Origin: Thermodesulfovibrionales bacterium
Lineage (GTDB): Bacteria; Nitrospirota; Thermodesulfovibrionia; Thermodesulfovibrionales; SM23-35
Length of the DNA stretch: 64,000 bases
Assembly: GCA_031082155.1 (NCBI GenBank)
Contig: JAVHLL010000001.1
Span: 25,058-89,057, forward strand
Direction of reading: 5' to 3'
Each line of letters starts with the position of its first letter. Position 1 is the first letter of the stretch. Made by a program: the position numbers and the translations under genes. The notes under the pieces are model-generated. The model was not told the origin of the DNA. It saw only the letters and a list, made by a program, of their open reading frames with translations, and made no database searches. Below, piece after piece: positions 21,856 to 56,501 of this stretch.

Positions 21856-21900
21856 TTGATGTTTCCTCTTTGAGGTTAAAATTCAGGAGTTTCCATAAAA

Positions 21901-22160: not shown

Positions 22161-22237
22161 TATTTCATTTAAATTTGTTTTCACCATTTTTTTGAATATG
22201 CAATATTATATATTGGATCAATAAAGGAGAGAAGATC

Positions 22238-30700: not shown

Positions 30701-30712
30701 TTCCTGTCCTCC

Positions 30713-32823: not shown

Positions 32824-34104
32824 TCAGTGCACCAGGTTATATTGCACAATATAGGCAGCTATACCCGCGAAATATCCGGCGGCGGCGAGCGGCCCTATGC
32901 GGCGCGCATACCAGAAAAATTCGATCTTCTCCAGTCCCATTGCGGCCACACCCGCAGCCGAACCGATGATCAGGATCGAGCCGCCTGTTCCTGCACAGTA
33001 GGCCATGAACTCCCAGATAAAAGAGTCCGCCGGAAACTGCGCAAGCGGGTACATTCCCATGGAAGCGGCCACCAGGGGAATATTATCCACTATGGCGGAA
33101 ACAAGGCCGATGATAATGACGATCATGGTTTGATTGCCGAGCTTTGCATCCAGCCACCCGGCCAGTGCCGGAAGCATGCCGTTTGCGGAAAGGGTAGCCA
33201 CCGCTAAAAGGATGCCAATGAAGAACACGACTGACGCCATATCGATGCGCTTGAGTGCCTTGGTCAATCTGAGGTGATCGAAATCCTCTTCAGACTTGTT
33301 GCGATGAAGGAGTTCCCCTGTCAACCAGACAACACCAAGGGCCAGCAAAATGCCAAGATAGGGGGGCAGATGCGTAAATGCCTTGAATATCGGGACAAAG
33401 ATCAGTGCTCCCATGCCCATGAAGAACATCAGTTTCTTTTCGAACGGCGAACAGCTGGAAGCCCCGTTTTCGACCTTGTCCGGGGGCACAACATTGCCTT
33501 TGACCATGAATGAGGCTATGACCAAAGGTACCAGCAGATTGACCATGGAAGCAATCCAGGTAGTTTTCATGATATTGAGTGTTGTGATCTGTCCGCCGAT
33601 CCAGAGCATGGTGGTGGTCACATCGCCGATTGGTGACCAGGCGCCGCCTGCATTGGCGGCAATCACGATAATGCCAGCGAAGAAGAGGCGTTGTTTATGG
33701 TCCTTAAGAAGGCGTTTCATCAGGGCGACCATCACGATGGTGGTGGTCATGTTGTCGAGAATCGACGAGAGATAGAAGGTGATAAAGCCGATGATCCAGA
33801 GCAGGCTTGTCAGTTTGGTTGCCTTAATGCGCGTGGTGATGACCTCGAAACCGCCGTGGGAGTCTGTCACCTCGACAATGGTCATGGCTGAGATCAGAAA
33901 GAATACGATGGCCGCGGTCTCAGCCAGTTTTTCAGTGAGTTGATGGATTACTGTTTCCACGCCCAGCGGGTTTGCAAACGAGTACAAGGTCCACATTAGT
34001 CCAGCGGCCAACAGGGCCGTGGCTGATTTGTTAATTTTGATCGGGTGCTCGAGCGCGATCATTGAGTAAGCGAGCACGAATACAACTGCTACCATTGCCA
34101 TCAT
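32824..34104 (-). CDS. NhaD-type Na+/H+ antiporter (IT superfamily)
   Basis: 426 aa, polytopic. ANAGGAWSPIGDVTTTMLWIGG and AGTGGSILIIGSAAGVAAMG are NhaD-like motifs. RBS AAGGAGG. Confidence 0.8.
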   Translation of the reverse strand: MMAMVAVVFVLAYSMIALEHPIKINKSATALLAAGLMWTLYSFANPLGVETVIHQLTEKLAETAAIVFFLISAMTIVEVTDSHGGFEVITTRIKATKLTSLLWIIGFITFYLSSILDNMTTTIVMVALMKRLLKDHKQRLFFAGIIVIAANAGGAWSPIGDVTTTMLWIGGQITTLNIMKTTWIASMVNLLVPLVIASFMVKGNVVPPDKVENGASSCSPFEKKLMFFMGMGALIFVPIFKAFTHLPPYLGILLALGVVWLTGELLHRNKSEEDFDHLRLTKALKRIDMASVVFFIGILLAVATLSANGMLPALAGWLDAKLGNQTMIVIIIGLVSAIVDNIPLVAASMGMYPLAQFPADSFIWEFMAYCAGTGGSILIIGSAAGVAAMGLEKIEFFWYARRIGPLAAAGYFAGIAAYIVQYNLVH

Positions 34105-34235
34105 GGGTTTACTCCTCCTTTAACGCCTGATTTTTCATCATCCCTCTTTGCAGTGCTGAGGATGTTTGCAACTTCCCTGAGCGTCGTGTCAGGCTTCAGG
34201 CGCTCCTGAAAAGGTATAATTAACCCTTCTTCCAT
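34101..34235 (-). pseudogene. 44-aa remnant of a CBS-pair gene (N-terminal fragment only), still translationally coupled to the NhaD gene
   Basis: Hand translation gives MEEGLIIPFQERLKPDTTLREVANILSTAKRDDEKSGVKGGVNP*. It matches the first ~40 aa of the 162/163-aa CBS proteins at 38960 and 44031 at about 54 percent identity. RBS AAAGGAG. Its TGA overlaps the NhaD ATG (ATGA). It is below the ORF-track cut-off. Confidence 0.45.
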
Positions 34236-34371
34236 ATGATTATCTCCTTTGGCATGTTCAAGGGCTTCCTGACATAATCAACTTCCTTGAAAACCCTGCC
34301 AGAATTCTGTTTAAGCGCTTCTTCAGACCCCATAAAATCTCCCATTTATAATCTGCCTGTGAAGTAACCCC

Positions 34372-34406
34372 CCCCCATCCTCTCCTTACTAAGGAAAGGA
34401 TGGGGG
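34372..34406 (-). terminator. long GC-rich hairpin after the DASS copy A gene
   Basis: 17-bp arms CCCCCATCCTCTCCTTA / TAAGGAAAGGATGGGGG with one mismatch and a 1-nt loop, 19 nt after the stop. No U-tract follows, so this is not a canonical terminator. Confidence 0.35.
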
Positions 34407-34424
34407 AAGTGAGGGGTTATTTTC

Positions 34425-35939
34425 TTACTTAAGCGTTATTGGCATTCCCAGCATCGGCCAGAATGTTACTATCGCAAAGCCGATGATTGCCACAAGCACC
34501 ACACTCAACAATAAGCCATGTCTAAAAAATTCACCCGGTGTAAACTGTTTTGATTCATAGGCAATCGCGTTCGGTGCAGCGCCGATCAGAAGCACAAAAG
34601 GCATACCTGCAGTAATCAGGGATGAGTAGAAAATTACATCAGGGGCTACACCCAGATATGGTGCGATAACCAGCGAAACAGGCAACGAGATCGCTATCGC
34701 AGCTACGTTCATAATAAAGTTCGTCATAATCAGGACAAAGGTTGCGATGCTGAGAACGAATACAAGCCAATGGGCGTTCTGGAACATGACAAGCCACTGA
34801 ACTGCCATCCACTGCGCAGCTCCCGTCTGCCAGAGGCAGAAACCGATACTCATTGCGCCGCTGAAAAGAAGGATGATATTCCAGGGAATATCTTCAAGTT
34901 CTTTTACAGTCAGCACCTTGAATATAAAGAAAAGAAGCGTTGATACGAGCATTATTGCTGCCCTGTCCAACGACTTTAACGCAGGAACAAAGGACTGCAT
35001 TGACATTACCGCGATAGCGCCTAACACCGTAATGATGACGAATTTTTCATCCCTTGTCATAGGCCCGAGTTCCTTGGAGAGTTTCGTGACTCTTTCCCTG
35101 AGTCCGGGGATGACACTCTTTTCAGGCTTCAGAAACATCATGAGGTATATCCAGATCAGAAATACCATGATCCAACCAATCAAAAAAGAGAATTTTGTAA
35201 GCTCAAAGAAACCTACTGTCTTGCCGGTAAATTCTGCAAACATTCCGGCGCCTGCTGCAGCCCTTGCAGAACCGAGGAAGGTAATAACGCTTCCGGCTCC
35301 GGCAGCATAAGCCATGCCGATGAACAATGACTTGCCGAATTTTGTAGGTTTATCTCCTTCACCATAGAGAGCATTGATAGCAAGCAATATCGGAAATACT
35401 GTGGCTGCGGCAGCGGTATGCGCCATGACATGTGCAAGACCGGCTGTAACCACCAGCGCTCCCAGCATGATCATGCTTGTTTTTTCGCCCACGATCTGGA
35501 GCATCTTGTATGCGAGCCGCTTTGTAAGCCCTGATTTTGTAAAGGCAAGCCCTACAACAACCGATGCGAAAATGAACATGACGGACGGGTCCATAAAGTC
35601 TTTAAAGGCATCTTTTGCAGGGCGTATTGCAAAGAGAGCCTGAAAGACGCCGATTGCAATCGCAGTGACGCCGATAGGAACAACCTCAAATATCCACCAG
35701 GTGGAAGCCAGTATGAAAAGCGCTATAGATCCTTTTCCCTGCGGTGACAGGACAAAATGCTTGCCTCCCGGGTCAACCGCGTCAGGCCAAGGGGGCATAA
35801 AATAGATCCACAAAAAGAGGCCTAATCCAATAAGGATAAACATAACCCGTTTCCAGTCAAATTTGTCTTTGGTTTCTGCAAGAACAATTTCAGGCGGTGG
35901 TTGGGGTAACCCCTCTGATTGTTTTTTCTGATCAGCCAT
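34425..35939 (-). CDS. DASS/SLC13-like anion permease (IT superfamily), copy A
   Basis: 504 aa, polytopic. GMAYAAGAGSVITFLGS and LLIGAAPNAIAYES are hairpin-type motifs. It is about 80 percent identical to copy B by eye. Confidence 0.85.
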   Translation of the reverse strand: MADQKKQSEGLPQPPPEIVLAETKDKFDWKRVMFILIGLGLFLWIYFMPPWPDAVDPGGKHFVLSPQGKGSIALFILASTWWIFEVVPIGVTAIAIGVFQALFAIRPAKDAFKDFMDPSVMFIFASVVVGLAFTKSGLTKRLAYKMLQIVGEKTSMIMLGALVVTAGLAHVMAHTAAAATVFPILLAINALYGEGDKPTKFGKSLFIGMAYAAGAGSVITFLGSARAAAGAGMFAEFTGKTVGFFELTKFSFLIGWIMVFLIWIYLMMFLKPEKSVIPGLRERVTKLSKELGPMTRDEKFVIITVLGAIAVMSMQSFVPALKSLDRAAIMLVSTLLFFIFKVLTVKELEDIPWNIILLFSGAMSIGFCLWQTGAAQWMAVQWLVMFQNAHWLVFVLSIATFVLIMTNFIMNVAAIAISLPVSLVIAPYLGVAPDVIFYSSLITAGMPFVLLIGAAPNAIAYESKQFTPGEFFRHGLLLSVVLVAIIGFAIVTFWPMLGMPITLK

Positions 35940-37184
35940 AATATTGCCTCCTTATTCCTTGATAAGTGAATCGGAAATTTCATCAAAGACTTCGATCATC
36001 CGTACGAGACCGACGAACTTCTTCTTGTTCTCTAAAACCGGCAGGAGAACAAGGTCGTGATGCACCATCAGATATGCCGCTTTGGTTACCGGATCGGCCG
36101 GATCAACAAACTGTTTTGCAGGGGCCATTATCTCGCTGACCGGCTTCTCCGCAAGCTCTTTCGACTGTTTGGTGAAAAGCGTATCCCAGATTAAAGAGAG
36201 TTCAGATTCCTGTTCCTTGTATCCCTGAGCCTTTTCTGAACCCTGCATAAACCTTGGTTCCAGCCCTCTGAGGATATCCTTCAGGGTAAGGGTCCCCATG
36301 AGGTTGTACTTTTCGTCGAACACCAGTATCGCCATCGGCTCAGGGTACTTCTTCGAGCTGATAAACGACACCTTGATAATCCTTACCGCCTGGTTGATCG
36401 TAAACCAGTAAGGGATGTGGGGATACTCAAAAATACCGATCATTACATCTTTCACAAGTTTTCCGTCTGCCATAACACCCTCCTTTTTATGCAACCTTTC
36501 TTTCGAATTCCATGAAAATTCTGAACCTGTCCGATTTCTTCACCGACTGCATGTACATGATCAGGGTATCTCCCGAATAAAATTGCTGGGTGAGCAGAGA
36601 AGCGGGAGCGCCTTCGGGGAGGTTCAGCAAACGAGCCTCATCTGTTTTCAGATGGGTAAGCTCGATAAAATTCTTTACCCTGGTAATTTTTATGCCGTAT
36701 TTTTTTTCGAAGAGATCAAAAAGGGAACGGGTTTCGATGTCGTCTTCCAGGAGGAGAGGGCAGAGATGGTAGGGGATATAGCATTCCTGTACCATAACCG
36801 GCTCATCCTGGACGGACCAGAGTCTTTTGATATAGATGACATGCTTTTCAGGGGATATGTCGAGAAGAGTATCAAGGCCATTCAACGGCATCATGACAGT
36901 TCTGGCAAGGACCTGCGGGGAAAAGGGGATCCCCTCTTCGAAGCACAGTTCTCTGAGATGCGCCTGCATATTCAGCCCTTCAGCTTGAGAGGTCCTGGAG
37001 ATGAAAGTTCCTTTTCCCTGCTGACGCTTCAGGTACCCCTGCCTGACAAGCTCCATAACGGCTGTTCTTACGGTGACCCTGCTGACATTAAATGTTTTGC
37101 AAAGCTCTTCTTCCGTTGGAATTTGTGCGCCTAACACCCATTCGCTCTTCTCGATTTTATTCTTGAAAATTTCGTACAACTGGT
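35782..37184. repeat. 1403-bp perfect direct repeat, copy 1
   Basis: It appears identical to 40927-42329 (offset 5145). All six-frame ORFs inside are identical between copies, and spot-checked nucleotide lines match. Identity drops abruptly at both edges: G versus A at 35781/40926, and G versus A at 37185/42330. Confidence 0.9.
35952..36473 (-). CDS. CBS-pair domain protein (173 aa), copy A
   Basis: Two CBS motifs. The start is set at MADGKLVKDV (RBS AAGGAGG 5 nt upstream), by analogy with the paralog at 56485. Confidence 0.85.
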   Translation of the reverse strand: MADGKLVKDVMIGIFEYPHIPYWFTINQAVRIIKVSFISSKKYPEPMAILVFDEKYNLMGTLTLKDILRGLEPRFMQGSEKAQGYKEQESELSLIWDTLFTKQSKELAEKPVSEIMAPAKQFVDPADPVTKAAYLMVHHDLVLLPVLENKKKFVGLVRMIEVFDEISDSLIKE

Positions 37185-37224
37185 GATACAGCTTATGATG
37201 ATCTTCCCTGTCTATTAATTCCAT
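36487..37224 (-). CDS. GntR/UTRA regulator, paralog 2 (copy A)
   Basis: (M)MELIDREDHHKLYHQLYEIFKNKIEKSEWVLGAQIPTEEELCKTFNVSRVTVRTAVMELVRQGYLKRQQGKGTF. An alternative start lies one codon upstream at 37227. Confidence 0.9.
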   Translation of the reverse strand: MELIDREDHHKLYHQLYEIFKNKIEKSEWVLGAQIPTEEELCKTFNVSRVTVRTAVMELVRQGYLKRQQGKGTFISRTSQAEGLNMQAHLRELCFEEGIPFSPQVLARTVMMPLNGLDTLLDISPEKHVIYIKRLWSVQDEPVMVQECYIPYHLCPLLLEDDIETRSLFDLFEKKYGIKITRVKNFIELTHLKTDEARLLNLPEGAPASLLTQQFYSGDTLIMYMQSVKKSDRFRIFMEFERKVA

Positions 37225-37304
37225 CATTGGTATGTCCTGATAATATAAAGTTAAGTGGTCAAAATGTTTCTACAAACTTATCTTAATTCCACTGGCGAAT
37301 GTGA

Positions 37305-37352
37305 TTCAATCGGCTAAAGCCTGTATTTTACTCGGGTAGATGCTGTATTTTG
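37305..37352. promoter_or_regulatory. tandem 22-bp direct repeat upstream of GntR copy A
   Basis: TTCAATCGGCTAAAGCCTGTATTTTACTCGGGTAGATGCTGTATTTTG. It aligns with 42446-42494 at roughly three quarters of positions, inside otherwise diverged flanking DNA. Confidence 0.3.
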
Positions 37353-37490
37353 CGGCAATGAAGGGTAAATTTTTATTGAATTTATGGAGAGTTGAGGGAA
37401 AGTGCAGATAGCGGACACTGTATTTCGGGGAAAATGACCGCAAGGGCCATGACAGTCATAATATCCTCGCTGGTGGACGTCTTAGTAAGA

Positions 37491-37530
37491 AAATAAAAAG
37501 CCGTTAACCATTCATTATCAGGATAACGGC
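37491..37530 (-). terminator. rho-independent terminator (second of a tandem pair)
   Basis: The minus strand reads GCCGTTATCC-loop-GGTTAACGGC followed by TTTTTATTTTCTT. Confidence 0.7.
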
Positions 37531-37548
37531 TTTCTGCATAGCACGAAT

Positions 37549-37587
37549 AAAAAAGCCGCTATCCCGATTGTATCCCGGGATAGCGGC
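37549..37587 (-). terminator. rho-independent terminator after the ArsB/CitMHS-like permease copy A
   Basis: The minus strand reads GCCGCTATCCCG-GGATACAAT-CGGGATAGCGGC followed by TTTTTT. It starts 5 nt after the stop codon. Confidence 0.85.
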
Positions 37588-37592
37588 CCGAC

Positions 37593-38963
37593 TTATATCT
37601 TTAATACATAATATCTTAGCCAGACGTAAACGGTTGCAACGAGAACGGTCATGACCATTATGGGCATACCGTAGAGCATGAACTTCCCGAAGGAGATCCT
37701 TTTGCCGAGCTTTTCAGACATGCCGACAACAATAACATTTGCCGATGCACCGATTGCGGTCCCGTTTCCGCCAAGACATGCGCCAAGAGCCAGTGACCAC
37801 CAGAGCGGCATCAGATCAGCATGATGGAGAAGCTGTGTCCCCGAAAGGTCCGGCCAGAGCTGCTTTGCCATATCAACGATCAATGGGTTCATGGTCGCAA
37901 CATACGGGATGTTGTCAATAAAGGCTGATGCAAAGGCAGAAAACCACATGACAACCATTGAGGTTGCGAACATGTTTCCCTGTGTTAACTCAAGGACTTG
38001 CACAGACATCCATTTTATGAGCCCTACCTTCACAACACCCCCAATAATAATGAAGAGACCCATGAAGAAAAAGATTGTCGGCCATTCTACTTCTGCGAGA
38101 ATATGATGCGGTTCGTGGGTTTTTGAAAGAAGGAGCAGGAGACCGGCGCCGAATAATGCTACTGTTGCAGGCTGGAAATGCAGCACTCCATGGAATATAA
38201 AACCGGTCAGAACAATTGCAAGGACGAAGAGTGATTTTTTCAGCATAACCGGGTCTTTGATGGCCTCATTTTCCTCCATGGACATGATTCTTGTTTTCAG
38301 TTCCTCTTTTGTCTTGAGTTTCTTGCCCCAGATGAGTTTTATCGCAAAGACGTAAAAAACCATTATGATAATGACAATAGGAGACAGATGGTATATGAAA
38401 TCCATAAAGCTGAGCTGGGCCTTTGAAGCTATCATGATATTCGGGGGGTCGCCGATAAGGGTTGCGGTACCACCGATGTTGGAAGCTAAAGCGCAGGAAA
38501 TGAGATAGGGCAGAGCGTCCACCTGTAATGCATCTGCAATGAGAATGGTCACCGGGACGATCAGGAGTACGGTGGTAACATTGTCAAGAAGTGCGCTTAA
38601 TACGGCGGTGACAATAGCAAATATTACCAAGATTCTGAATGGCTCACCTTTTCCCAACTTGGCGCTTTTTACTGCTATATATTCAAATACGCCGGTCGGT
38701 CTCATCAGGTTGATGATGACCATCATCGAGATAAGCAGGAAGATGACATTCCAGTCAATCCCGAATTCCTCTACATGAAATGCCTCGTGCTGTTCAAGAA
38801 TCTTGAGAATAAGCATTACCCCTGCGCCGAAGACTGCAACAATCGTTTTATGTATTTTTTCCGATACAATAACTGCATAAGCGATCAGGAATATCGCGGT
38901 CGCTATCCAGAACGAAGAACCCATAACAACCTGGGTTGTGGCAGCAGCAACTTCTTCGGTCAT
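37593..38963 (-). CDS. ArsB/NhaD/CitMHS-like permease (IT superfamily), copy A
   Basis: 456 aa, polytopic. ASNIGGTATLIGDPPNIMIAS and GGNGTAIGASANVIVVG motifs. The start overlaps the upstream CBS gene stop (ATGA). Confidence 0.85.
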   Translation of the reverse strand: MTEEVAAATTQVVMGSSFWIATAIFLIAYAVIVSEKIHKTIVAVFGAGVMLILKILEQHEAFHVEEFGIDWNVIFLLISMMVIINLMRPTGVFEYIAVKSAKLGKGEPFRILVIFAIVTAVLSALLDNVTTVLLIVPVTILIADALQVDALPYLISCALASNIGGTATLIGDPPNIMIASKAQLSFMDFIYHLSPIVIIIMVFYVFAIKLIWGKKLKTKEELKTRIMSMEENEAIKDPVMLKKSLFVLAIVLTGFIFHGVLHFQPATVALFGAGLLLLLSKTHEPHHILAEVEWPTIFFFMGLFIIIGGVVKVGLIKWMSVQVLELTQGNMFATSMVVMWFSAFASAFIDNIPYVATMNPLIVDMAKQLWPDLSGTQLLHHADLMPLWWSLALGACLGGNGTAIGASANVIVVGMSEKLGKRISFGKFMLYGMPIMVMTVLVATVYVWLRYYVLKI

Positions 38964-39448
38964 TTTCCACCTCCTGTATTTTCATTGATCATCGACTTGG
39001 TAATTTCGTAAAACATATCCCGTTCATAAAGCATCCCTGTCACCCTGTGCTCTTTGTTCAGAACAGGCACCCTCTTCACTTTATTTTTCAGCATATGGTC
39101 TATGCACTCCATCAGCGTTGCATCCTCTTTTACCGTAATTACCTTTGAGGTCATAAGGTCCCTGACCTTTTTCCCGGAAGCTTTTTGTGCAAACGTCTCG
39201 ACCATCCCATCCCATGCAAAGCTGCCAAGGTTCATTAAATCCATATAGGCAGGGTGGACTGCCTTAAGGATATCGCCTATGGAGAGTATTCCAATAAGAT
39301 TTCCTGATGCGTCAAGCACCGGCAGGGCTTTCACCCCAATTTTTTCTTCTCCTCTCAGCGCTATCCTGAGAAGGTTTGCTGCTTCTTTAAGAGTGTTGTC
39401 CGGCTCTAAATATTCCTGTAGTGGTATCATCAAATCCTTTGCCTTCAT
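38960..39448 (-). CDS. CBS-pair domain protein (162 aa), type 2, copy A
   Basis: MKAKDLMIPLQEYLEPDNTLKEAANLL...VLDASGNLIGILSIGDILKA...VKRVPVLNKEHRVTGMLYERD. Two CBS motifs. Confidence 0.85.
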   Translation of the reverse strand: MKAKDLMIPLQEYLEPDNTLKEAANLLRIALRGEEKIGVKALPVLDASGNLIGILSIGDILKAVHPAYMDLMNLGSFAWDGMVETFAQKASGKKVRDLMTSKVITVKEDATLMECIDHMLKNKVKRVPVLNKEHRVTGMLYERDMFYEITKSMINENTGGGK

Positions 39449-39569
39449 AAGACCTCCATTCCGTAAACTAATAAAAAAATCTCTTGTCCGGTAATCCCTC
39501 AGGCCTTCCCAGCCGTGAACATCCCGTCAAGGGAGGGGAAGTATTGGGACATTGTGTATCTGTTGTTTC

Positions 39570-41084
39570 TTATTTCAGTAATATCGGCATCCCTAATATT
39601 GGCCATACCGTGAACAGTGCGATCCCGAGTACAACGATCAGAATAATGCTCAGGGGGATACCGTGCATAAAAAATTCACCTGTGCTGAACTGTTTAGACT
39701 CATAGGCAATCGCATTCGGAGCCGCGCCGATAAGGAGGATGAAAGGCATGCCCGCTGTCACGAGAGAAGCATACAGAATTACGTCAGGTGCTACACCGAG
39801 ATACCCGGCGACAACAAGAGAAACAGGTAATGCAATGGCAATTGCTGCCACGTTCATGATGAAATTCGTCATAATCAGGACAAAGGTTGCGATGCTCAAA
39901 ACAAATACGAACCAAGGGGCGTTCTGGAACATGACCAGCCAGTTAACCGCCATCCACTGGGCAGCGCCTGTCTTCCAGAGACAGAAGCCGATGCTCATTG
40001 CGCCGCTGAAAAGGAGGATGATATTCCAGGGGATATCTTCCAGTTCTTTCACTGTCAAAACTTTGAATATGAAGAACAGGAGCGTCGAAACGAGCATGAT
40101 CGAGGCCCTGTCCAACGACTTTAACGCAGGAACAAAGGACTGCATTGACATGACGACCACTACACCGAGAACACAAATGATTACAAACTTTTCGTTAAAT
40201 GAAAGAGGGCCCAGTTCACTGGATAATCTTTTTACCTTCTCCCTTAATCCTGTGATAACCTTTTTCTCTGCTTTCATGAATATCATGAGATAGCCCCATA
40301 TAATAAAGACCATAATCCAACCGATGAGGAACATATATTTGGTGAGTTCAAAAAAGCCGATATCCCTTCCGGTAAATTCCTTGAACATACCTGCTGCTGC
40401 CGGTCCACGCGCAGCTCCGAGAAACGTGATGATGCTCCCGGCTCCGGCGGCATACGCCATGCCGATAAAAAGAGATTTGCCGAATTTAGTCTGTTTATCA
40501 CCTTCCCCGTAAAGGGCATAGACTGCAAGCAGAATAGGGAAGACAGTGGCTGCCGCAGCCGTGTGTGCCATTAAGTGTGAGAGTCCGGCGGTTACCACAA
40601 GACAGCCCAACAGGATCATGCTCGTTCTCTCTCCGACTACTTCAAGCATTTTATAGGCAAGCCGCTTTGTGAGCCCTGATTTTGTGAATGCCAGCCCTAC
40701 GACTACAGAGCCGAAGATGAACATGACGGACGGGTCCATAAAATCTCTGAACGCATCTTTGGCCGTCCTGATTGCAAACAGTGCCTGAAAAACCCCGATA
40801 GCAAGGGATGTAACGCCAATTGGCAGAACTTCAAACACCCACCAGGTGCCGGCAAGCAAGAACAGTGCAATGGCTCCTTTCCCTTCCTTCGAGAGGGGGA
40901 ATGCTTTGCCTGTGGGGTCTAATGCATCAGGCCAAGGGGGCATAAAATAGATCCACAAAAAGAGGCCTAATCCAATAAGGATAAACATAACCCGTTTCCA
41001 GTCAAATTTGTCTTTGGTTTCTGCAAGAACAATTTCAGGCGGTGGTTGGGGTAACCCCTCTGATTGTTTTTTCTGATCAGCCAT
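39570..41084 (-). CDS. DASS/SLC13-like anion permease, copy B
   Basis: 504 aa. The first 54 aa are identical to copy A (inside the perfect repeat). The remainder is diverged. Confidence 0.85.
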   Translation of the reverse strand: MADQKKQSEGLPQPPPEIVLAETKDKFDWKRVMFILIGLGLFLWIYFMPPWPDALDPTGKAFPLSKEGKGAIALFLLAGTWWVFEVLPIGVTSLAIGVFQALFAIRTAKDAFRDFMDPSVMFIFGSVVVGLAFTKSGLTKRLAYKMLEVVGERTSMILLGCLVVTAGLSHLMAHTAAAATVFPILLAVYALYGEGDKQTKFGKSLFIGMAYAAGAGSIITFLGAARGPAAAGMFKEFTGRDIGFFELTKYMFLIGWIMVFIIWGYLMIFMKAEKKVITGLREKVKRLSSELGPLSFNEKFVIICVLGVVVVMSMQSFVPALKSLDRASIMLVSTLLFFIFKVLTVKELEDIPWNIILLFSGAMSIGFCLWKTGAAQWMAVNWLVMFQNAPWFVFVLSIATFVLIMTNFIMNVAAIAIALPVSLVVAGYLGVAPDVILYASLVTAGMPFILLIGAAPNAIAYESKQFSTGEFFMHGIPLSIILIVVLGIALFTVWPILGMPILLK

Positions 41085-42329
41085 AATATTGCCTCCTTAT
41101 TCCTTGATAAGTGAATCGGAAATTTCATCAAAGACTTCGATCATCCGTACGAGACCGACGAACTTCTTCTTGTTCTCTAAAACCGGCAGGAGAACAAGGT
41201 CGTGATGCACCATCAGATATGCCGCTTTGGTTACCGGATCGGCCGGATCAACAAACTGTTTTGCAGGGGCCATTATCTCGCTGACCGGCTTCTCCGCAAG
41301 CTCTTTCGACTGTTTGGTGAAAAGCGTATCCCAGATTAAAGAGAGTTCAGATTCCTGTTCCTTGTATCCCTGAGCCTTTTCTGAACCCTGCATAAACCTT
41401 GGTTCCAGCCCTCTGAGGATATCCTTCAGGGTAAGGGTCCCCATGAGGTTGTACTTTTCGTCGAACACCAGTATCGCCATCGGCTCAGGGTACTTCTTCG
41501 AGCTGATAAACGACACCTTGATAATCCTTACCGCCTGGTTGATCGTAAACCAGTAAGGGATGTGGGGATACTCAAAAATACCGATCATTACATCTTTCAC
41601 AAGTTTTCCGTCTGCCATAACACCCTCCTTTTTATGCAACCTTTCTTTCGAATTCCATGAAAATTCTGAACCTGTCCGATTTCTTCACCGACTGCATGTA
41701 CATGATCAGGGTATCTCCCGAATAAAATTGCTGGGTGAGCAGAGAAGCGGGAGCGCCTTCGGGGAGGTTCAGCAAACGAGCCTCATCTGTTTTCAGATGG
41801 GTAAGCTCGATAAAATTCTTTACCCTGGTAATTTTTATGCCGTATTTTTTTTCGAAGAGATCAAAAAGGGAACGGGTTTCGATGTCGTCTTCCAGGAGGA
41901 GAGGGCAGAGATGGTAGGGGATATAGCATTCCTGTACCATAACCGGCTCATCCTGGACGGACCAGAGTCTTTTGATATAGATGACATGCTTTTCAGGGGA
42001 TATGTCGAGAAGAGTATCAAGGCCATTCAACGGCATCATGACAGTTCTGGCAAGGACCTGCGGGGAAAAGGGGATCCCCTCTTCGAAGCACAGTTCTCTG
42101 AGATGCGCCTGCATATTCAGCCCTTCAGCTTGAGAGGTCCTGGAGATGAAAGTTCCTTTTCCCTGCTGACGCTTCAGGTACCCCTGCCTGACAAGCTCCA
42201 TAACGGCTGTTCTTACGGTGACCCTGCTGACATTAAATGTTTTGCAAAGCTCTTCTTCCGTTGGAATTTGTGCGCCTAACACCCATTCGCTCTTCTCGAT
42301 TTTATTCTTGAAAATTTCGTACAACTGGT
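40927..42329. repeat. 1403-bp perfect direct repeat, copy 2
   Basis: See copy 1 at 35782-37184. Confidence 0.9.
41097..41618 (-). CDS. CBS-pair domain protein (173 aa), copy B (identical to copy A)
   Basis: The translated ORF is identical to 35952-36494. Confidence 0.85.
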   Translation of the reverse strand: MADGKLVKDVMIGIFEYPHIPYWFTINQAVRIIKVSFISSKKYPEPMAILVFDEKYNLMGTLTLKDILRGLEPRFMQGSEKAQGYKEQESELSLIWDTLFTKQSKELAEKPVSEIMAPAKQFVDPADPVTKAAYLMVHHDLVLLPVLENKKKFVGLVRMIEVFDEISDSLIKE

Positions 42330-42369
42330 AATATAATTTTTGGTGGTCTTCCCTATCGATAAGTTCCAT
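41632..42369 (-). CDS. GntR/UTRA regulator, paralog 3 (copy B)
   Basis: MELIDREDHQKLYYQLYEIF... It is identical to copy A from about residue 15 onward. The start is set at MELID (42369) rather than the tracked 42390. Confidence 0.9.
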   Translation of the reverse strand: MELIDREDHQKLYYQLYEIFKNKIEKSEWVLGAQIPTEEELCKTFNVSRVTVRTAVMELVRQGYLKRQQGKGTFISRTSQAEGLNMQAHLRELCFEEGIPFSPQVLARTVMMPLNGLDTLLDISPEKHVIYIKRLWSVQDEPVMVQECYIPYHLCPLLLEDDIETRSLFDLFEKKYGIKITRVKNFIELTHLKTDEARLLNLPEGAPASLLTQQFYSGDTLIMYMQSVKKSDRFRIFMEFERKVA

Positions 42370-42371
42370 AA

Positions 42372-42389
42372 TATTACTATGTAATAACA
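42372..42389. promoter_or_regulatory. AT-rich palindrome abutting the GntR copy B start
   Basis: TATTAC-TAT-GTAATAACA. It contains the 10-mer TGTAATAACA, which is the reverse complement of TGTTATTACA in the 57254 palindrome. Confidence 0.25.
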
Positions 42390-42445
42390 ATATAATAAAT
42401 AATCGTTACAACAATATGCTATAGTATTTCAAGGACCCGATATGT

Positions 42446-42494
42446 TTCAATCGGGTACATACTGTATTTATATCGGGTATTTACTGTATATTTG
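42446..42494. promoter_or_regulatory. tandem 22-bp direct repeat upstream of GntR copy B
   Basis: TCGGGTACATACTGTATTTA at 42451-42470 and TCGGGTATTTACTGTATATT at 42473-42492. An overlapping dyad CCCGAT-N8-ATCGGG lies at 42436-42455. Confidence 0.3.
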
Positions 42495-42830
42495 AGTGCC
42501 TGTGCAATTTATTTAGCTTCAAAAATATAGATAAAAAACATATATGAATCAATCTATTATGCTAATTTAATCGCTATAGACAAGAATCAGGAAGGGCTAT
42601 GCTATCTGGTTCCCGAATGCATGGAAAGAGGGATTGACTCAAAAGGAGCAGTTTTTATCGCTGTTTTTTCAGTCAGAGAATGTCGTGAGCCATATTGACT
42701 GTTCTGTTTTTCCTCCTTTTCTTCATTTTAATCTTCGATTCGCTATGGTATAGTTCTATCATGAATCCCCCAAAGCCCATTTGGTATAGTAATTGTTGGG
42801 TGATGAACAAGCAATTGAGAAAGGAGCACA

Positions 42831-43580
42831 ATGACAGAACAATCTGAACAACAAAAATTCGCAGTGTTGATTGATGGAGACAATGCACAAGCTTCCCTTC
42901 TTCCTCAGGTTTTGGCGGAGGTGAGCAAGTTCGGGTTGATCACCATAAAGCGGATATATGGAGACTGGACGACGACCAGCATGAACAGCTGGAAGCCTGC
43001 ACTCCACAAGCATGCTATTCAACCGATTCAGCAATTTCGGTACACAGTTGGCAAAAACGCAACTGACAGTGCGATGATAATCGACGCGATGGATCTGCTC
43101 CATAGCAGTGATGTTGAAGGCTTCTGCATTGTTGCCAGTGACAGTGACTACACGCGGTTGGCAACAAGGATCAGAGAAGAAGGTCTCTTTGTCATTGGGG
43201 TCGGTGAAAAGAAGACTCCCGAAGCGTTCACCAATGCCTGCAATCAATTCGTTTACTGTGAGAACCTGACAGATACCCATAAGAAAAGAAGGAAGCAGAA
43301 TAAGGTTGAAGAGTCCAGCGCCCCGGATCCCATGCCCCTTCTTCTTCAGGCGTTCGAGACTGTTGTAAAGGATGAAGAATGGGTCCACTTGTCAGCGATG
43401 GGTTTTGTTCTCCATAAACTGGACCCGGCATTCGATCCTCGAACGTACGGTCACAAGAAACTTCAGTCCCTCATCAAGGACTATCCGGGCGCGTTTACGT
43501 TGAAACGAGACGATTCAACTAAGCCGCCAGTAGTCTATGTTGCCCTGACCGCCCAACAGGAGGATTCAGGCGACGCTTAA
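42831..43580 (+). CDS. NYN-domain (LabA-like) protein with C-terminal OST-HTH/LOTUS domain
   Basis: FAVLIDGDNA...IKRIYGDW...GKNATDSAMIIDAMDLL...FCIVASDSDYTRLATRIREEG..VIGVG is the NYN pattern. The C-terminal WVHLSAMGFVLHKLDPAFDPRTYGHKKLQSLIKDYP is LOTUS-like. Confidence 0.85.
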   Translation: MTEQSEQQKFAVLIDGDNAQASLLPQVLAEVSKFGLITIKRIYGDWTTTSMNSWKPALHKHAIQPIQQFRYTVGKNATDSAMIIDAMDLLHSSDVEGFCIVASDSDYTRLATRIREEGLFVIGVGEKKTPEAFTNACNQFVYCENLTDTHKKRRKQNKVEESSAPDPMPLLLQAFETVVKDEEWVHLSAMGFVLHKLDPAFDPRTYGHKKLQSLIKDYPGAFTLKRDDSTKPPVVYVALTAQQEDSGDA

Positions 43581-43956
43581 CTGCGCGCCTGTTTCTAAAC
43601 GGCATGAATTTCTCCTGATAATCCTCAAATATTTACCATTCATTCATCGGATTATTGGCAGGGGGCATTAAGAAAAATATGGTGTTTCTTCTGGAGAGAA
43701 AGATGCACAGCATAACCCGATAAGCATAAATTCAGGTGACAGCTTCCATTTCCGGGTATTTGTTACACCTGCCCTCTCTGTGGATGCAACTATGTATCCC
43801 CGGTTGCAAAATGTTATTTGTAGCAGTTCATATTCTTGAGAGATATTTATCGATATAATTACTGTTGATACCTTGACAGATTGATTCATTTAATAGGAAA
43901 ATATCATAGGGTTCAGAAATAGTTTTTATTTCTGAAGGGAGTACAAAAAGATAGTC

Positions 43957-43998
43957 GGGCCGCTATCAGGTGGATAGCCACTTGGTGCGGCCTTTTTT
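43957..43998 (+). terminator. terminator-like hairpin plus T6 upstream of the plus-strand CBS/permease pair
   Basis: GGCCGC...GCGGCC outer stem with an inner GCTATC-AGGTG-GATAGC, followed by TTTTTT. Its 5' part (AAAGATA-GTCGGGCCGCTATC) matches the stop-codon and terminator junction of permease copy A. Confidence 0.5.
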
Positions 43999-44030
43999 AT
44001 TTGCTGACAATTTATCTCAGGGAGGTGCGA

Positions 44031-44522
44031 ATGAAAGCTAAGGATTTAATGATACCTTTACAGGAATATTTAACTCCAGATCATACGCTCAAAGAAGCAG
44101 CTAATTTTCTCAGGATAGCCGGGAGAGGAGAAGAGAAGATTGGAGTTAAAGCTCTGCCTGTTCTTGATACGAAAGGGAAATTAATAGGTATTCTTTCGAT
44201 CGGCGACATACTCAAAGCCGTTTATCCGAAATATATGTATCAAATGGATTTGGGAAGCTTTACATGGGATGGAATGGTTGAAACAATTGCAAAAAAAATG
44301 GCTGATAGAAAAGTGAAAGATTTTATGACACAAATGGTTATCACAATTAGGGAAGATGCGCCAATCATGGAGTGTGTCGATCAAATGCTGAAACATAATG
44401 TTAAAAGAGTACCTGTACTGAATAAGGAGAACAAGGTCATCGGGATATTGTATGAAAGAGATATTTTCTTTTTCATTACAAATGCCATGCAGAACAGCGT
44501 GGAGGTGCAAAATGACGAATGA
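44031..44522 (+). CDS. CBS-pair domain protein (163 aa), type 2, copy B
   Basis: MKAKDLMIPLQEYLTPDHTLKEAANFLRIAGRGEEKIGVKALPVLD... It is a paralog of 38960-39448. The start is ATG 44031 after GGAGGTG. Confidence 0.85.
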   Translation: MKAKDLMIPLQEYLTPDHTLKEAANFLRIAGRGEEKIGVKALPVLDTKGKLIGILSIGDILKAVYPKYMYQMDLGSFTWDGMVETIAKKMADRKVKDFMTQMVITIREDAPIMECVDQMLKHNVKRVPVLNKENKVIGILYERDIFFFITNAMQNSVEVQNDE

Positions 44523-45882
44523 GCCAATTGTTTCTGCACAGCCTTTTGTAATGGATACTGCATTTTGGACAGCAACTGCTATCTTTCTTGTTGCCTATGC
44601 AATAATCGTATCCGAAAAGGTTCATAAAACAGTCGTAGCCATCTTTGCTGCCAGCCTTATGATTGTCTTAAAGATTCTTGAACAGCATGAGGCCTTTCAT
44701 GTTGAAGAGCTTGGCGTGGACTGGAATGTCATATTCCTTCTCATATCCATGATGGTGATCATAAACCTGATGAGGCCGAGCGGTATTTTTGAGTATATAG
44801 CGATAAAAAGCGCGAAGTTGGGAAAAGGTGAGCCATTCAGGATCATGGCAATTTTTGCTGTTGTCACGGCGGTTCTCAGTGCGTTACTTGATAATGTCAC
44901 AACCGTGCTTTTGATAACTCCCGTAACCGTTCTTATCGCAGACGCACTGGAAATCGATCCGATCCCTTATCTTATTTCATGTGCCCTTGCATCGAATATT
45001 GGCGGCACGGCAACGCTTATCGGCGATCCCCCCAATATTATGATTGCTTCGAAGGCATACCTTACCTTCATGGATTTTATCTATCATTTGACTCCAATCG
45101 TTATCGTACTGATGGTTGTTTATATTCTGACTATAAAAGTGATCTGGGGCAAGAAGCTCAAAACAAAGGATAGCCTGAAGAAAAGAATTATGGAAATGGA
45201 CGAAAGGGGAGCCATTAAAGACCCTGTTATGCTGAAGAAAGCTCTTTTTGTTCTAGCCCTTGTTCTGACAGGTTTCGTATTTCACGGCGCACTCCATTTA
45301 CAGCCTGCGACCATAGCCCTTTTCGGGGCAGGTCTCCTGCTGCTGCTTTCAAAAACCCATGAGCCACATCATATCCTGGCAGAAGTCGAATGGCCGACCA
45401 TTTTCTTTTTCATAGGGCTGTTCATAATCGTGGGGGGAGTAGTAAAAGTAGGTCTGATAAAATGGATGTCTCTACAAATTCTTGATTTGACCCAGGGCAA
45501 TATGTTTGCGACCTCAATGGTTGTCATGTGGTTTTCCGCCTTCGCATCAGCGATTGTGGATAACATACCCTATGTTGCAACCATGAACCCGCTGGTCATT
45601 GATATGGCAAAACAGCTCTGGCCGAAGCTCTCAGGATTACAATTGCTGCACCATCCTGACCTAATGCCTGTCTGGTGGTCATTGGCATTAGGTGCGTGTC
45701 TTGGCGGAAATGGCTCAGCCATTGGTGCATCTGCAAATGTGATAGTCATCGGTTTATCTGAAAAGGCCGGCAACAAGATTTCTTTTATGAAGTTCATGGC
45801 ATACGGAATGCCGATCATGATAATAACAGTGGCTATCTCGACTGTCTATGTATGGCTGAGATATTATGTGTTGAAGATATGA
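44512..45882 (+). CDS. ArsB/NhaD/CitMHS-like permease, copy B
   Basis: 456 aa from ATG 44512 (RBS GGAGGTG). It is about 80 percent identical by eye to 37593-38963 and overlaps the CBS gene by 11 nt. Confidence 0.85.
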   Translation: MTNEPIVSAQPFVMDTAFWTATAIFLVAYAIIVSEKVHKTVVAIFAASLMIVLKILEQHEAFHVEELGVDWNVIFLLISMMVIINLMRPSGIFEYIAIKSAKLGKGEPFRIMAIFAVVTAVLSALLDNVTTVLLITPVTVLIADALEIDPIPYLISCALASNIGGTATLIGDPPNIMIASKAYLTFMDFIYHLTPIVIVLMVVYILTIKVIWGKKLKTKDSLKKRIMEMDERGAIKDPVMLKKALFVLALVLTGFVFHGALHLQPATIALFGAGLLLLLSKTHEPHHILAEVEWPTIFFFIGLFIIVGGVVKVGLIKWMSLQILDLTQGNMFATSMVVMWFSAFASAIVDNIPYVATMNPLVIDMAKQLWPKLSGLQLLHHPDLMPVWWSLALGACLGGNGSAIGASANVIVIGLSEKAGNKISFMKFMAYGMPIMIITVAISTVYVWLRYYVLKI

Positions 45883-45961: not shown

Positions 45962-46960
45962 TTATTTCAAGATATAAAGCAGTATAAGGTTCAGGATATA
46001 GATAAGGACGATTCCCATCGAATCCCAGGCCAGAAATAACTGTTTTTTCTCTGCACGGTAAGTCAACCCGATAACTGCAATAGCCGTCATTGCGATAGCA
46101 GATAAAGCAGAAATAATATGATTCTGGTTCGCATATGAAAGGATCGGCCCTTTTATGAAAAATATATCGTCAATAGCAAGGATACATATATTGAAGATAT
46201 TACTTCCGAACAGATTGCCGACTGCGAGGTCAACCGCATCCATCTTCACTGCTGAAAAAGATACCACTACTTCAGGCAACGAGGTAGAAACAGCAACAAA
46301 AATATTTCCTACAAATGTCTGTCCAAGTCCTGTTATTTCTGCAATCCCTTCGCCGATCTTCGGTAGAAAAGTTGCCGCGACAATAACAATGATTGCATTC
46401 ATAACGTAATTCAGAACAGCAGTTCGCGTTGCAATATCCCTATATCTCAATTCAACAGCCTTTTCCTTCATGAGAGCGGCAATCTGTTTCTTTTCGTAAA
46501 AATAGACCAGGCGCATGGCAACCAAATAAATAATGATAAAAAATATGCTATATGGACCAATCCATCCCAACGATGCAATATAATTGCCTAAGAAGATACT
46601 GACTGATACGGTGCTAAGAAGGAGTATCCCGAAGGCAGCAGAAAGGATATTGCCCTGATGTGCCTTTGCTGAGATAGGCATAATTCGGTACTGAGCATCG
46701 AGCAATGCTATGATCAGCATATTAAAGACACAACTTCCAAGCACGTCACCTACAGCAATATCCGGCACTCCTGCGAATGTTACAGAACTTATTCCCGTCA
46801 CAAGTTCAGGGAGTGAAGTGACAGAGGCCATGAGAACCATGCCTGTCCATGCCCTTCCAAGCCCTGTCTTTTCAGCAATAATATCCCCATATTTTGACAG
46901 TTTTATTCCTGAATAAACGATTGCAGCTGTGCAAATTATAAAACCAAGCCAGAGCAGCAC
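45962..46960 (-). CDS. CaCA-family cation (Ca2+/Na+) antiporter
   Basis: 332 aa. The two alpha-repeat motifs are GDVLGSCVFNMLIIA and GNLFGSNIFNICILA. Confidence 0.85.
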   Translation of the reverse strand: MLLWLGFIICTAAIVYSGIKLSKYGDIIAEKTGLGRAWTGMVLMASVTSLPELVTGISSVTFAGVPDIAVGDVLGSCVFNMLIIALLDAQYRIMPISAKAHQGNILSAAFGILLLSTVSVSIFLGNYIASLGWIGPYSIFFIIIYLVAMRLVYFYEKKQIAALMKEKAVELRYRDIATRTAVLNYVMNAIIVIVAATFLPKIGEGIAEITGLGQTFVGNIFVAVSTSLPEVVVSFSAVKMDAVDLAVGNLFGSNIFNICILAIDDIFFIKGPILSYANQNHIISALSAIAMTAIAVIGLTYRAEKKQLFLAWDSMGIVLIYILNLILLYILK

Positions 46961-47202
46961 TATTTCCCTCCTTTAAAATAATACATGCCCATCATTTTTT
47001 CTGTACTATTTCAATAATACTCCATCCACTATTTAAATTTGAAATCAGGGACAGATCCTTTATTCTGCTTCAAGGAATAAGATTTTGCTCTGATTCTGTC
47101 GATGTGCTGCAGAAAATTGTGAGAATCTGCAGCAGCTTGAATAGTGAACTTCCCAGATGTTCCCTGCGAAAAACAATGAAATGTATTGTGAGTCTGACGG
47201 GG

Positions 47203-47832
47203 TTACTTTTCCAGGATGCCTGTTTTTATTGCATACCTTACAAGGTCGGCGGTTGTATGGACGTCGAGTTTTTGCATGATATTCGTCCGGTGGGTTTCCA
47301 CAGTTTTAACGCTAATAAACAGTTGACTGGCAATCTGTTTATTGGTGAACCCGGATGCGATGAGCTTTAATACTTCGCGTTCGCGGGTGGTGAGCGCATG
47401 GGCCTCTTTCCCCTCTTCAGAGGAAGCTTTCATCAGCCTCTCGGAAACCGAAGGGCTGATAAAGGTCCAGCCTGCGGAGACGGCTTTGACCGCATAGAGC
47501 AGATCCTCAAAGGCGTTGTCCTTGAGAACGTAACCGGATGCTTTCAGTTGCAGCGCCCTCCTGGCAGTGAGGGTCTCGTTATGCATGGTGAGGAAAATAA
47601 CCTTTGTGGGGATTCCCGTGCTCTGAATCTTCTGGAGGATCTCGAAGCCGTCAAGCCCCGGCATCGATATGTCGAGAATGGCGATATCTGGTTTCTCCCT
47701 GAGAATGAGATCAAGGGTTTCCGTCCCTCCACCCGCTTCTCCGATGACCGACAGGTCCGGTGCGGATTTCAGCAGATTCAGGAGCCCCTGTCTGAATATG
47801 ACATGATCGTCTGCGATAATAACCCTGGTCAT
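47203..47832 (-). CDS. NarL/LuxR-family response regulator
   Basis: REC (VIIADDH...IAILDISMPGLDG) plus a LuxR HTH (LTTREREVLKLIASGFTNKQIASQLFISVKTVETHR). Confidence 0.92.
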   Translation of the reverse strand: MTRVIIADDHVIFRQGLLNLLKSAPDLSVIGEAGGGTETLDLILREKPDIAILDISMPGLDGFEILQKIQSTGIPTKVIFLTMHNETLTARRALQLKASGYVLKDNAFEDLLYAVKAVSAGWTFISPSVSERLMKASSEEGKEAHALTTREREVLKLIASGFTNKQIASQLFISVKTVETHRTNIMQKLDVHTTADLVRYAIKTGILEK

Positions 47833-49676: not shown

Positions 49677-49748
49677 CCTGCCATAGCAGGTTCATCCCTG
49701 AAAAAAGAATGACAGCAGTCCGGACCCTATCTTCCTGCCTGAGCATCA

Positions 49749-56485: not shown

Positions 56486-56501
56486 AAACCCTCCTTAATT
56501 T

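Follow-up and report, generated by a model that had tools for sequence, protein, structure and literature searches.

In ClC, MgtE, CNNM/CorB/CorC and OpuA/OpuC, a CBS-domain pair gates a transporter in response to a nucleotide or an ion and is covalently fused to the protein that it controls. Detachable nucleotide-binding regulatory subunits encoded beside a secondary transporter are also known (KtrA-KtrB, TrkA-TrkH, KhtT-KhtU and TeaD with the TRAP transporter TeaABC), as are proteins made up of CBS domains alone that have AMP, ADP, ATP or c-di-AMP as ligands and control another protein (DarB/CbpB with Rel, CBSX with thioredoxin, AcuB and AMPK gamma), but the targets of the latter are soluble enzymes and we know of none that acts on a permease. 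Likewise, we know of no characterised CBS control in the ion-transporter (IT) superfamily. Here we describe, in a 64,000-nt stretch of contig JAVHLL010000001.1 from a Thermodesulfovibrionales bacterium (the window), a cluster in which genes for small stand-alone CBS pairs, each a separate polypeptide, directly precede genes for IT-superfamily permeases. As this pairing is conserved across many phyla, the CBS protein probably serves the permease as a detachable regulatory subunit.

The closest published case comes from a proteogenomic study of Desulfobacteraceae, which reported a 30.5-kb cluster of genes for DASS-type sulfate transporters and CBS proteins (Sci Adv 2025; PMC11887813). In 26 sulfate reducers it found DASS-type transporters grouped with Usp proteins, Cache histidine kinases and stand-alone CBS proteins, and both transporters and CBS proteins were formed constitutively (PMC11887813). 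That study drew a 'putative protein-protein interaction' between CBS protein and transporter and speculated that sulfate uptake is tied in this way to adenosine phosphosulfate (APS), ATP or energy state; in its supplement, genes for a CBS protein (TOL2_C19460) and a sodium/sulfate symporter (TOL2_C19470) stand side by side in Desulfobacula, and Dvar_38430 appears with Dvar_38450 in Desulfosarcina variabilis, where Dvar_38230 belongs to the same cluster (PMC11887813). The published case is genomic and proteomic only, sulfate transport being putative there too. Since a CBS-transporter interaction was proposed there, the idea of a CBS subunit, which the preliminary description of the window did not know to be characterised, was already in print as speculation for sulfate reducers.

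As in Desulfobacteraceae, the window belongs to a sulfate-reducer lineage and has DASS-type permease genes beside stand-alone CBS genes, with Usp and Cache kinase/response regulator genes nearby; the features that define the published cluster recur in the window as four intact permease-CBS pairs and a dCache_1 kinase with a response regulator. The window differs in its phylum, in its GntR/UTRA-led operons, in the LCIB-type carbonic anhydrase and NhaD antiporter genes of the extended operon and in the definition of two CBS lineages with ATGA coupling, and the likeness is drawn from gene content. No cultured Desulfobacteraceae occurred among the best 120 matches of a Desulfobulbaceae orthologue, which were only metagenome-assembled genomes (MAGs) and Dissulfurispira. 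Compared by description only, the ArsB-like permease resembles the 'highly conserved' cross-phylum DASS group Ci of Marietou et al., two members of which lie near sat and aprAB (PMC5840216). A literature search on CBS proteins with ArsB, NhaD or CitMHS found nothing relevant, and a 2023 review of transporter control lists only fused CBS domains together with GlnK-AmtB and SbtB-SbtA, PII control being seemingly limited to trimeric transporters (PMC10710835). GlnK and SbtB are similar to the CBS proteins of the window as small cytoplasmic adenylate-binding proteins that are encoded in the operon of a transporter and bind and block it (a glnK-amtB set is present at 13552-16995), but they are trimers of PII fold with a T-loop, whereas CBS pairs typically form dimers and the DASS fold is likewise dimeric. 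Membership of the CBS proteins among the PII-type regulators was rejected, their fold being that of a CBS pair by AlphaFold2 (AF2) and Foldseek, and the likeness is functional only. RCK/TrkA_C and Usp accessory subunits have the same detachable layout and different folds; Usp proteins replace or accompany CBS in operons related to those described here.

Genes were called from an open reading frame (ORF) listing with translation, Pfam and NCBIfam, and coordinates are window positions (Table 1). The cluster consists of two GntR/UTRA-led operons (A and B), a separate plus-strand pair and a degraded third copy. On the minus strand, operon B reads GntR/UTRA_B - CBSd_B - DASS_B - CBSa_A - ArsB/CitMHS-like_A - terminator and operon A reads GntR/UTRA_A - CBSd_A - DASS_A - 44-codon CBSa fragment - NhaD; CBSa_B and ArsB-like_B form the plus-strand pair, convergent with a CaCA exchanger gene. 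CBSd denotes the 173-aa CBS type found with DASS-like permeases and CBSa the 162/163-aa type found with ArsB/CitMHS-like permeases, and the four intact pairs between 32.8 and 45.9 kb comprise two of each kind. All five permeases of the cluster match Pfam CitMHS and are therefore members of the ion-transporter superfamily clan. DASS-like A and B score 150-156 bits with Pfam Na_sulph_symp (cutoff 27) and 175 bits with NCBIfam TIGR00785, under its cutoff of 198.6. With CitMHS scores of 296-304 bits, the ArsB-like permeases are members only of the broader CitMHS/ArsB-NhaD clan; identity as an ArsB arsenite pump (PRK15445, 114 bits against a cutoff of 457) or as MamN (186-188 bits against 500) was rejected. 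The NhaD gene passes the NCBIfam NF038006 NhaD_1 equivalog model (164 bits, cutoff 80) and is under the older TIGR00775 cutoff (383 bits against 577).

At the junction of each intact pair a GGAGG Shine-Dalgarno sequence lies inside or directly 3' of the CBS gene. CBSa_A and ArsB-like_A share an ATGA overlap, with GGAGGTG within the 3' end of the CBS gene, CBSa_B and ArsB-like_B overlap by 11 nt, and the two CBSd-DASS junctions are 12-nt gaps (TAA-GGAGG-N7-ATG) in which CBSd, its stop codon and DASS form an in-frame read-through arrangement; GntR and CBSd are spaced by 13 nt. These junctions agree with the preliminary description, which had, however, counted five pairs: four are intact, and two of them are probably one recent duplicate. 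Positions 35800-37150 and 40945-42295 hold 1.35 kb of 100% identical DNA (GntR, CBSd and the first ~47 DASS codons), unlike the DASS bodies of operons A and B (62-89% identical DNA), and the identical segment reflects either gene conversion or an assembly artefact. The two DASS pairs thus appear to be one duplicated unit and not independent of each other. The supposed fifth pair, a CBS gene coupled by ATGA to NhaD, turned out to be a 44-codon scar. The ORF before NhaD matches the first part of CBSa and then ends, and the 'ATGA overlap' at 34101/34104 arises because NhaD has its own ATGATG start and ribosome-binding site. In L008, one of the homologous loci from other genomes and metagenomes (numbered with the prefix L), the NhaD gene begins just as it does in the window (GGAGGAG...CCATGATG) with no CBS sequence in front, and that of L009 likewise has none. 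Together with the 44-codon fragment, these genes rule out NhaD as a CBS-paired permease; the fragment is a deletion scar, left by the loss of most of CBSa and an entire ArsB-like gene.

The two CBS types score differently in Pfam CBS (PF00571), at 88-94 bits in two stretches for CBSa and 40-44 bits in one or two stretches for CBSd. The two families nevertheless align with 99.2% probability in hhalign (E = 3e-19, 154 aligned columns) and are 23-24% identical over their full length; by these comparisons CBSd is a full CBS pair homologous to CBSa, and the two are sister families. Common to both is an unusual inter-CBS linker, P-x-[YF]-M...W-D-x-[ML], which takes the form P-x-Y-M...F-x-W-D-G-M in CBSa (conserved residues F77, W79 and G81, the last two nearly invariant in the family) and P-R-F-M...I-W-D-T-L in CBSd. 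AF2 models CBSa with a CBS-pair fold at a predicted local distance difference test score (pLDDT) of 77.5 and the conserved linker at <50; a conserved linker of such low confidence could be a docking element that orders on partner binding. The WDG linker is confined to the CBSa partners of close permease orthologues and was rejected as a universal signature, being present in 7/42 upstream CBS ORFs. Foldseek with the CBSa model retrieved MJ0922, CBSX and MgtE at E = 2e-12, and the nearest solved folds are stand-alone CBS proteins with AMP, ADP, ATP or S-adenosylmethionine (CBSX, MJ0100, AcuB and DarB) and the cytosolic domain of MgtE. Both types contain the ribose-binding-type motif G-h-h-S/T-x-x-D/N: CBSa has GILSIGD, with G53, S56 and D59 invariant among close homologues, and GMLYERD in CBS2, with D144 nearly invariant, and CBSd has GTLTLKD, with G60, T61 and D66 invariant. 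By this ribose-phosphate motif, CBSa and CBSd are predicted to be competent for ligand binding. Close homologues of both types come mostly from Nitrospirota and Thermodesulfovibrionales metagenomes.

A forward scan with a six-sequence CBSa alignment against one genome per species yielded 51 loci, hosted by Nitrospirota/Thermodesulfovibrionales, Syntrophales, Desulfomonilia, Dissulfuribacterales, Desulfobulbaceae, Caldimicrobium, Chloroflexota, Actinomycetota and Bacteriovoracaceae MAGs. An orthologue of the ArsB-like permease (670-930 bits) is the next same-strand gene in 50 of these, and the remaining locus is at a contig end. ATGA overlaps occur at 30 of 53 CBSa junctions, and hardly any junction exceeds 37 nt. 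Across the phyla of these loci, identity is 65-93% for the permease and 35-91% for CBSa, the CBS protein evolving 1.5 times faster. The distance matrix of CBSa co-varies with that of the permease (Mantel r = 0.65, reached by 0 of 999 permutations), as would also be expected from shared descent or joint transfer. Similarly, a DASS orthologue follows all 13 CBSd genes that have downstream sequence (L003-L007, L009, L018, L019, L031 and L139-L142) at a gap of 9 to ~33 nt; those loci that carry an organism label are mostly Nitrospirota, Nitrospirae or Thermodesulfovibrionales, and the metagenome-derived ones have none. Several earlier claims are borne out by these data, namely that the small ORFs of the intact pairs are CBS pairs, that the permeases belong to one superfamily, that each CBS type is tied to one permease lineage and that the adjacency is conserved, in distant as well as related genomes. 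The shared linker and the sister relationship fit the further claim of co-diversified CBS and permease lineages.

The reverse test started from 80 metagenomic loci with relatives of the ArsB-like permease (44-91% identity) and counted the 70 with at least 450 nt upstream, accepting a CBS gene that ended within 300 nt of the permease start. A same-strand CBS gene was found upstream in 41 of the 70 (7/9 at 70% identity or more and 30/52 at <55%), overlaps of -4 and -8 nt were common, and all ten of the adjoining ORFs sampled were Pfam CBS proteins, one of them with a fused PTS EIIA-2 domain. A CBS gene also lies directly downstream in 7/80 loci. The gene at 2083-2982 of L108 joins PTS EIIA-2 to a CBS pair and lies 3 nt ahead of the gene for an ArsB-like permease. 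Because the reverse test gave 41/70 and two close permease orthologues (L061 and L072) have no CBS gene, the association is strong and old but not obligatory. Nevertheless, the pairing is statistically overwhelming; the adjacency occurs in >100 independent loci, across phyla and two permease families and with overlapping stop and start codons, which effectively refutes the notion that it is incidental and that the operon neighbours are functionally unrelated; we consider this extremely improbable.

The best explanation, to which we assign a probability of roughly 0.55, is that the CBS protein would be a detachable regulatory subunit gating Na+-cycle anion permeases of the IT superfamily; the duplication of the CBS-permease pair as a unit in the window counts in its favor. 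Each intact DASS-like and ArsB/CitMHS-like permease would be translated together with its own CBS protein, and translational coupling would supply that protein in roughly 1:1 amounts. VcINDY-type DASS proteins are homodimers, and the CBS protein, dimerising like other CBS pairs, would dock on the cytoplasmic face of a dimeric elevator-type permease, where a bound adenosine ligand (ATP, ADP, AMP or possibly APS) would switch transport on or off; NhaD would recycle the Na+ taken up with the anion. Such a subunit would correspond, in detachable form, to the fused CBS domains of ClC, MgtE, CNNM and OpuA and, as a dimer, to the trimeric regulators in GlnK-AmtB and SbtB-SbtA. Two candidate contacts are proposed from prediction only: on the CBS protein its W-D-G linker and, on DASS, an N-terminal tail (EGLPxPPxEI, residues 9-18) that precedes the first membrane helix, is invariant in 12 orthologues and is lacking in VcINDY. 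A broader proposal, which we hold tentatively and with clearly less confidence, is that stand-alone CBS dimers serve as dedicated gating subunits of dimeric elevator IT-superfamily anion transporters, the two together making up a two-component transporter class widespread in anaerobes; their linker would dock on the permease (in DASS perhaps on the EGLPxPPxEI tail) and an adenylate such as APS or AMP would curb the uptake of sulfate or bicarbonate in line with energy state.

Several observations weigh against a dedicated gating subunit. L061 and L072, two of the nine close permease orthologues and both from metagenomes, have no upstream CBS gene or remnant, and ~40% of the wider permease family lacks an upstream CBS gene. 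No CBS-permease fusion was found in the best 150 matches of the CBSa search (phmmer against 1.84 billion representatives), where a fusion of a CBSa-like protein with Usp (P0275) was the only fusion, or among the best 120 hits of the permease. For CBSd, AF2 gave an unusable model (pLDDT 37; shallow alignment of at least 77% identity). Finally, CBSd is found without a permease. In the third copy, CBSd_C is intact and 77% identical to CBSd_A and CBSd_B, and was kept despite the decay of the adjoining permease to a DASS remnant of 44 aa (39% identity); orphan CBSd genes also occur in L141 and L063, as convergent copies with no adjacent DASS. An intact CBSd without an adjacent DASS would therefore act in trans or on something else, such as GntR.

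The last point leads to an alternative that we regard as unlikely, though it is the stronger of two concerning the role of the CBS protein, namely that it is co-expressed with the permease and acts on another target, either as a co-sensor with GntR/UTRA or on a metabolic enzyme, in the way that DarB/CbpB acts on Rel and pyruvate carboxylase and AcuB on the Acs system. It would account for the survival of CBSd_C and GntR_C although the DASS between CBSd_C and LCIB was deleted, and is in keeping with the structural neighbours DarB and AcuB and with the best NCBIfam match of CBSd, the CBS-only transcription activator HhpR (at 42 bits only). The pair is followed by an acetyl-CoA synthetase gene (ACAS_N + AMP-binding; directly 3', same strand) in four to five Thermodesulfovibrionales and Ca. 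Sulfobium genomes, and at 3775-8171 of L005 a separate 146-aa CBS protein is encoded beside two-subunit pyruvate carboxylase genes, just upstream of GntR-CBSd-DASS, an arrangement that recalls the binding of pyruvate carboxylase by the CBS protein DarB in Bacillus; both arrangements could be taken to favor such a target. Nevertheless, CBSa is linked to the permease in 50/50 informative loci, most of them without GntR, CBSd-DASS occurs without GntR in L004, the ATGA coupling is specific to the permease and the CBS proteins have no DNA-binding domain. Still less probable is that the permease cannot do without the CBS protein for its structure or assembly and would be inactive or unstable alone, in the manner of KtrB with KtrA or TrkH with TrkA, ligand sensing being secondary. 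The strict adjacency of the forward test, a permease 65-93% identical across phyla and the fixed stoichiometry implied by translational coupling would suit such a role, but close permease orthologues lack CBS (L061, L072), the faster evolution of the CBS protein is more typical of a regulatory accessory and its nucleotide-site motifs are conserved.

The operons of related genomes place the regulatory subunit proposed here in a wider setting. In its fullest form, seen in L005, L007-L009, L018, L019, L141 and L142, the operon reads GntR - CBSd - DASS - LCIB carbonic anhydrase - CBSa - ArsB-like (- NhaD), and a dCache kinase with a response regulator and two phosphoenolpyruvate (PEP)-utilising enzymes are encoded divergently from it. 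The GntR-led order of operon A recurs in L003, L005, L018 and L139-L142, the kinase/response regulator flank also in L004, and the synteny of the plus-strand pair with CaCA and CPA2 also in L001 and L002. NhaD orthologues (805-817 bits) follow the ArsB-like permease in L008 and L009, where NhaD belongs to the extended operon. In L003, L004 and L139, a paralogous permease takes the CBSa/ArsB-like position and has a tandem-Usp protein after it; this permease has 583 aa in L003 and 582 aa in L004, with a weak Ig-like N-terminal domain, and 480 aa in L139. A CBS fusion in the 583-aa form was considered and rejected, the extra 140 N-terminal residues being Ig-like. Usp genes also precede CBSa in six other loci, and, judged by their place in the operon, Usp proteins are alternative partners at that position. 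TauE/SafE is a neighbour in five loci, and cultured Dissulfurispira thermophila (AP022873, L138) carries GntR - TauE - 138 aa - Usp - CBS - permease, in which the junction reads ATGA.

The possible carbonic anhydrase of the preliminary description is predicted by Pfam to be of LCIB type (PF18599, 182 bits), and in relatives it lies inside the operon: LCIB_C_CA is found between DASS and CBSa in at least eight bacterial operons. The LCIB family is known from algal CO2-concentrating mechanisms, and no relevant paper on bacterial LCIB homologues in the operons of transporters came up in a literature search. Sulfate or some other inorganic oxyanion, moving with Na+, is the most plausible substrate, and bicarbonate is a serious alternative. 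DASS matches VcINDY (E = 2.5e-26), in which the SNT motifs at the hairpin tips bind Na+ and carboxylate, but has AHT and MNV (residues 173-175 and 410-412) at the two motif positions. Both replacements are invariant in 12 orthologues and depart from the Ser-Asn-Thr/Val motif of DASS/SLC13 (TC 2.A.47); because AHT and MNV replace the SNT motifs, the classical dicarboxylates are less likely substrates. A sulfur oxyanion is favored by the CBSa host lineages, mostly sulfate or sulfur metabolisers, by the TauE neighbours and by the published Desulfobacteraceae clusters (PMC11887813). Speaking against sulfate, no sat, apr or dsr gene was found in the window or among 163 neighbouring genes (5 kb or less) of the 51 CBSa loci, and the LCIB-type carbonic anhydrase of the operon and the pyruvate carboxylase of L005 point to bicarbonate.

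On a reading that we consider possible but doubtful, the operon would be an inorganic-carbon/pH system in which Na+-coupled import of bicarbonate falls to the DASS-like and/or ArsB-like permeases, interconversion of CO2 and HCO3- to LCIB and recycling of Na+ to NhaD, with an SbtB-like role for the CBS protein. Besides the position of LCIB_C_CA, NhaD as part of the extended operon, the pyruvate carboxylase genes that adjoin the operon in L005 and L006, the PEP-utilising enzymes divergent from GntR, the paralogous GntR with an operator-like palindrome beside the SulP-STAS gene and a DASS without carboxylate-type SNT motifs would all suit bicarbonate. To our knowledge, however, the IT superfamily includes no bicarbonate transporter. 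Moreover, both intact operons of the window lost LCIB and kept the pairs, carbonic anhydrase is found at few CBSa-permease loci (8/88 neighbours) and the published homologous clusters were read as sulfate uptake (PMC11887813).

The palindrome is a candidate operator that may join the SulP and the DASS/CBS operons in one regulon. It has the sequence GTAATAATGTTATTAC (GTAATAA-N2-TTATTAC) just upstream of GntR_C, and a copy with one mismatch lies at 21901-21916, between GntR_D and the SulP-STAS gene, giving two matches in the window where chance alone would give 0.07. The palindrome also occurs ~30 nt upstream of GntR in L003 (7223-7238) and L139 (6218-6233). Elsewhere in the window, two terminator-like hairpins share GTCGGGCCGCTATC...TTTTTTATT, one after ArsB-like_A (37553-37589) and the other (43964-43987) 45 nt upstream of CBSa_B, and may mark a rearrangement that inverted the B pair.

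Table 1. Features of the CBS/permease cluster, its flanks and selected homologous loci. Positions refer to the window unless a locus is named.
Feature	Position	Strand	Evidence or remark
glnA - amtB - glnK - amtB; glnK (PII, 112 aa) at 15199-15537	12005-16995	-	textbook operon of a small signal protein with its permease; 20 kb from the CBS/permease cluster
GntR_D (21121-21855, -) divergent from SulP-STAS permease (22238-24367, +)	21121..24367		fourth GntR/UTRA paralogue
dCache_1 histidine kinase (30713-32431) and response regulator (30323-30700), cluster flank	30323..32431	-	Pfam
NhaD-type Na+/H+ antiporter, last gene of operon A	32824..34104	-	NhaD_1 164 bits; CitMHS 109 bits
CBSa-gene remnant, 44 codons	34101..34235	-	60% identity to CBSa residues 6-40
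DASS-like permease A, 504 aa	34425..35939	-	Pfam Na_sulph_symp 155.6 bits
CBSd_A, 173-aa stand-alone CBS pair	35952..36473	-	Pfam CBS 40 bits
GntR/UTRA (HutC-type) regulator A, first gene of operon A	36487..37227	-	Pfam GntR + UTRA
Intrinsic terminator closing operon B	37553..37589	-	15-bp stem, 9 GC pairs, T-run; directly 3' of ArsB-like_A stop
ArsB/NhaD/CitMHS-like permease A, 456 aa	37593..38963	-	Pfam CitMHS 304 bits
CBSa_A, 162-aa stand-alone CBS pair	38960..39448	-	Pfam CBS 88 bits, 2 stretches
DASS-like permease B	39570..41084	-	83% identical to DASS_A
CBSd_B	41097..41618	-	100% identical to CBSd_A
GntR/UTRA regulator B, first gene of operon B	41632..42390	-	98.8% identical to GntR_A
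NYN ribonuclease-like + OST-HTH/LOTUS domain protein	42831-43580	+	between operon B and the CBSa_B pair
CBSa_B, 163-aa CBS pair	44031..44522	+	Pfam CBS 94 bits
ArsB/CitMHS-like permease B	44512..45882	+	81% identical to permease A
CaCA exchanger, LuxR-type response regulator, 7TMR-DISM kinase, CPA2 antiporter with TrkA_N/TrkA_C	45962..51734	-	Pfam; synteny L001, L004
Degraded third operon copy: GntR_C 56502-57239, CBSd_C 55964-56485, DASS remnant 55768-55899, LCIB-type carbonic anhydrase 54999-55757	54999..57239	-	tblastn + Pfam
Candidate GntR operator, palindrome	57254..57269		just upstream of GntR_C
LCIB-type carbonic anhydrase	window 54999-55757; L005 12122-12838; L141 9132-9848; others		
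Paralogous ArsB/CitMHS permease + tandem-Usp	L003 11119-13845; L004 10310-13194; L139 10290-12708		
Acetyl-CoA synthetase	L043, L044, L046, L048, about 6970-8970		

As a concept, CBS control of these permeases is a variant of known transporter regulation that has been suggested once for sulfate reducers, and with fused CBS regulators common and the association noted once, the surprise is limited and the finding is useful rather than startling. New here are the breadth of conservation, the two sister CBS lineages with their shared linker, the reconstruction of the operon and a cultured organism that carries the pair: Dissulfurispira thermophila, with its GntR-TauE-Usp-CBS-permease order, offers a cultured system for it. 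Sulfate uptake is the first and a poorly understood step of dissimilatory sulfate reduction, and the ArsB/NhaD-like permeases are a large, extremely conserved and uncharacterised family. If the proposal is true, the logic by which a small nucleotide sensor plugs a transporter would extend from the trimeric PII systems to dimeric elevator transporters, and thousands of genes annotated as 'CBS domain-containing protein' would gain a functional label.

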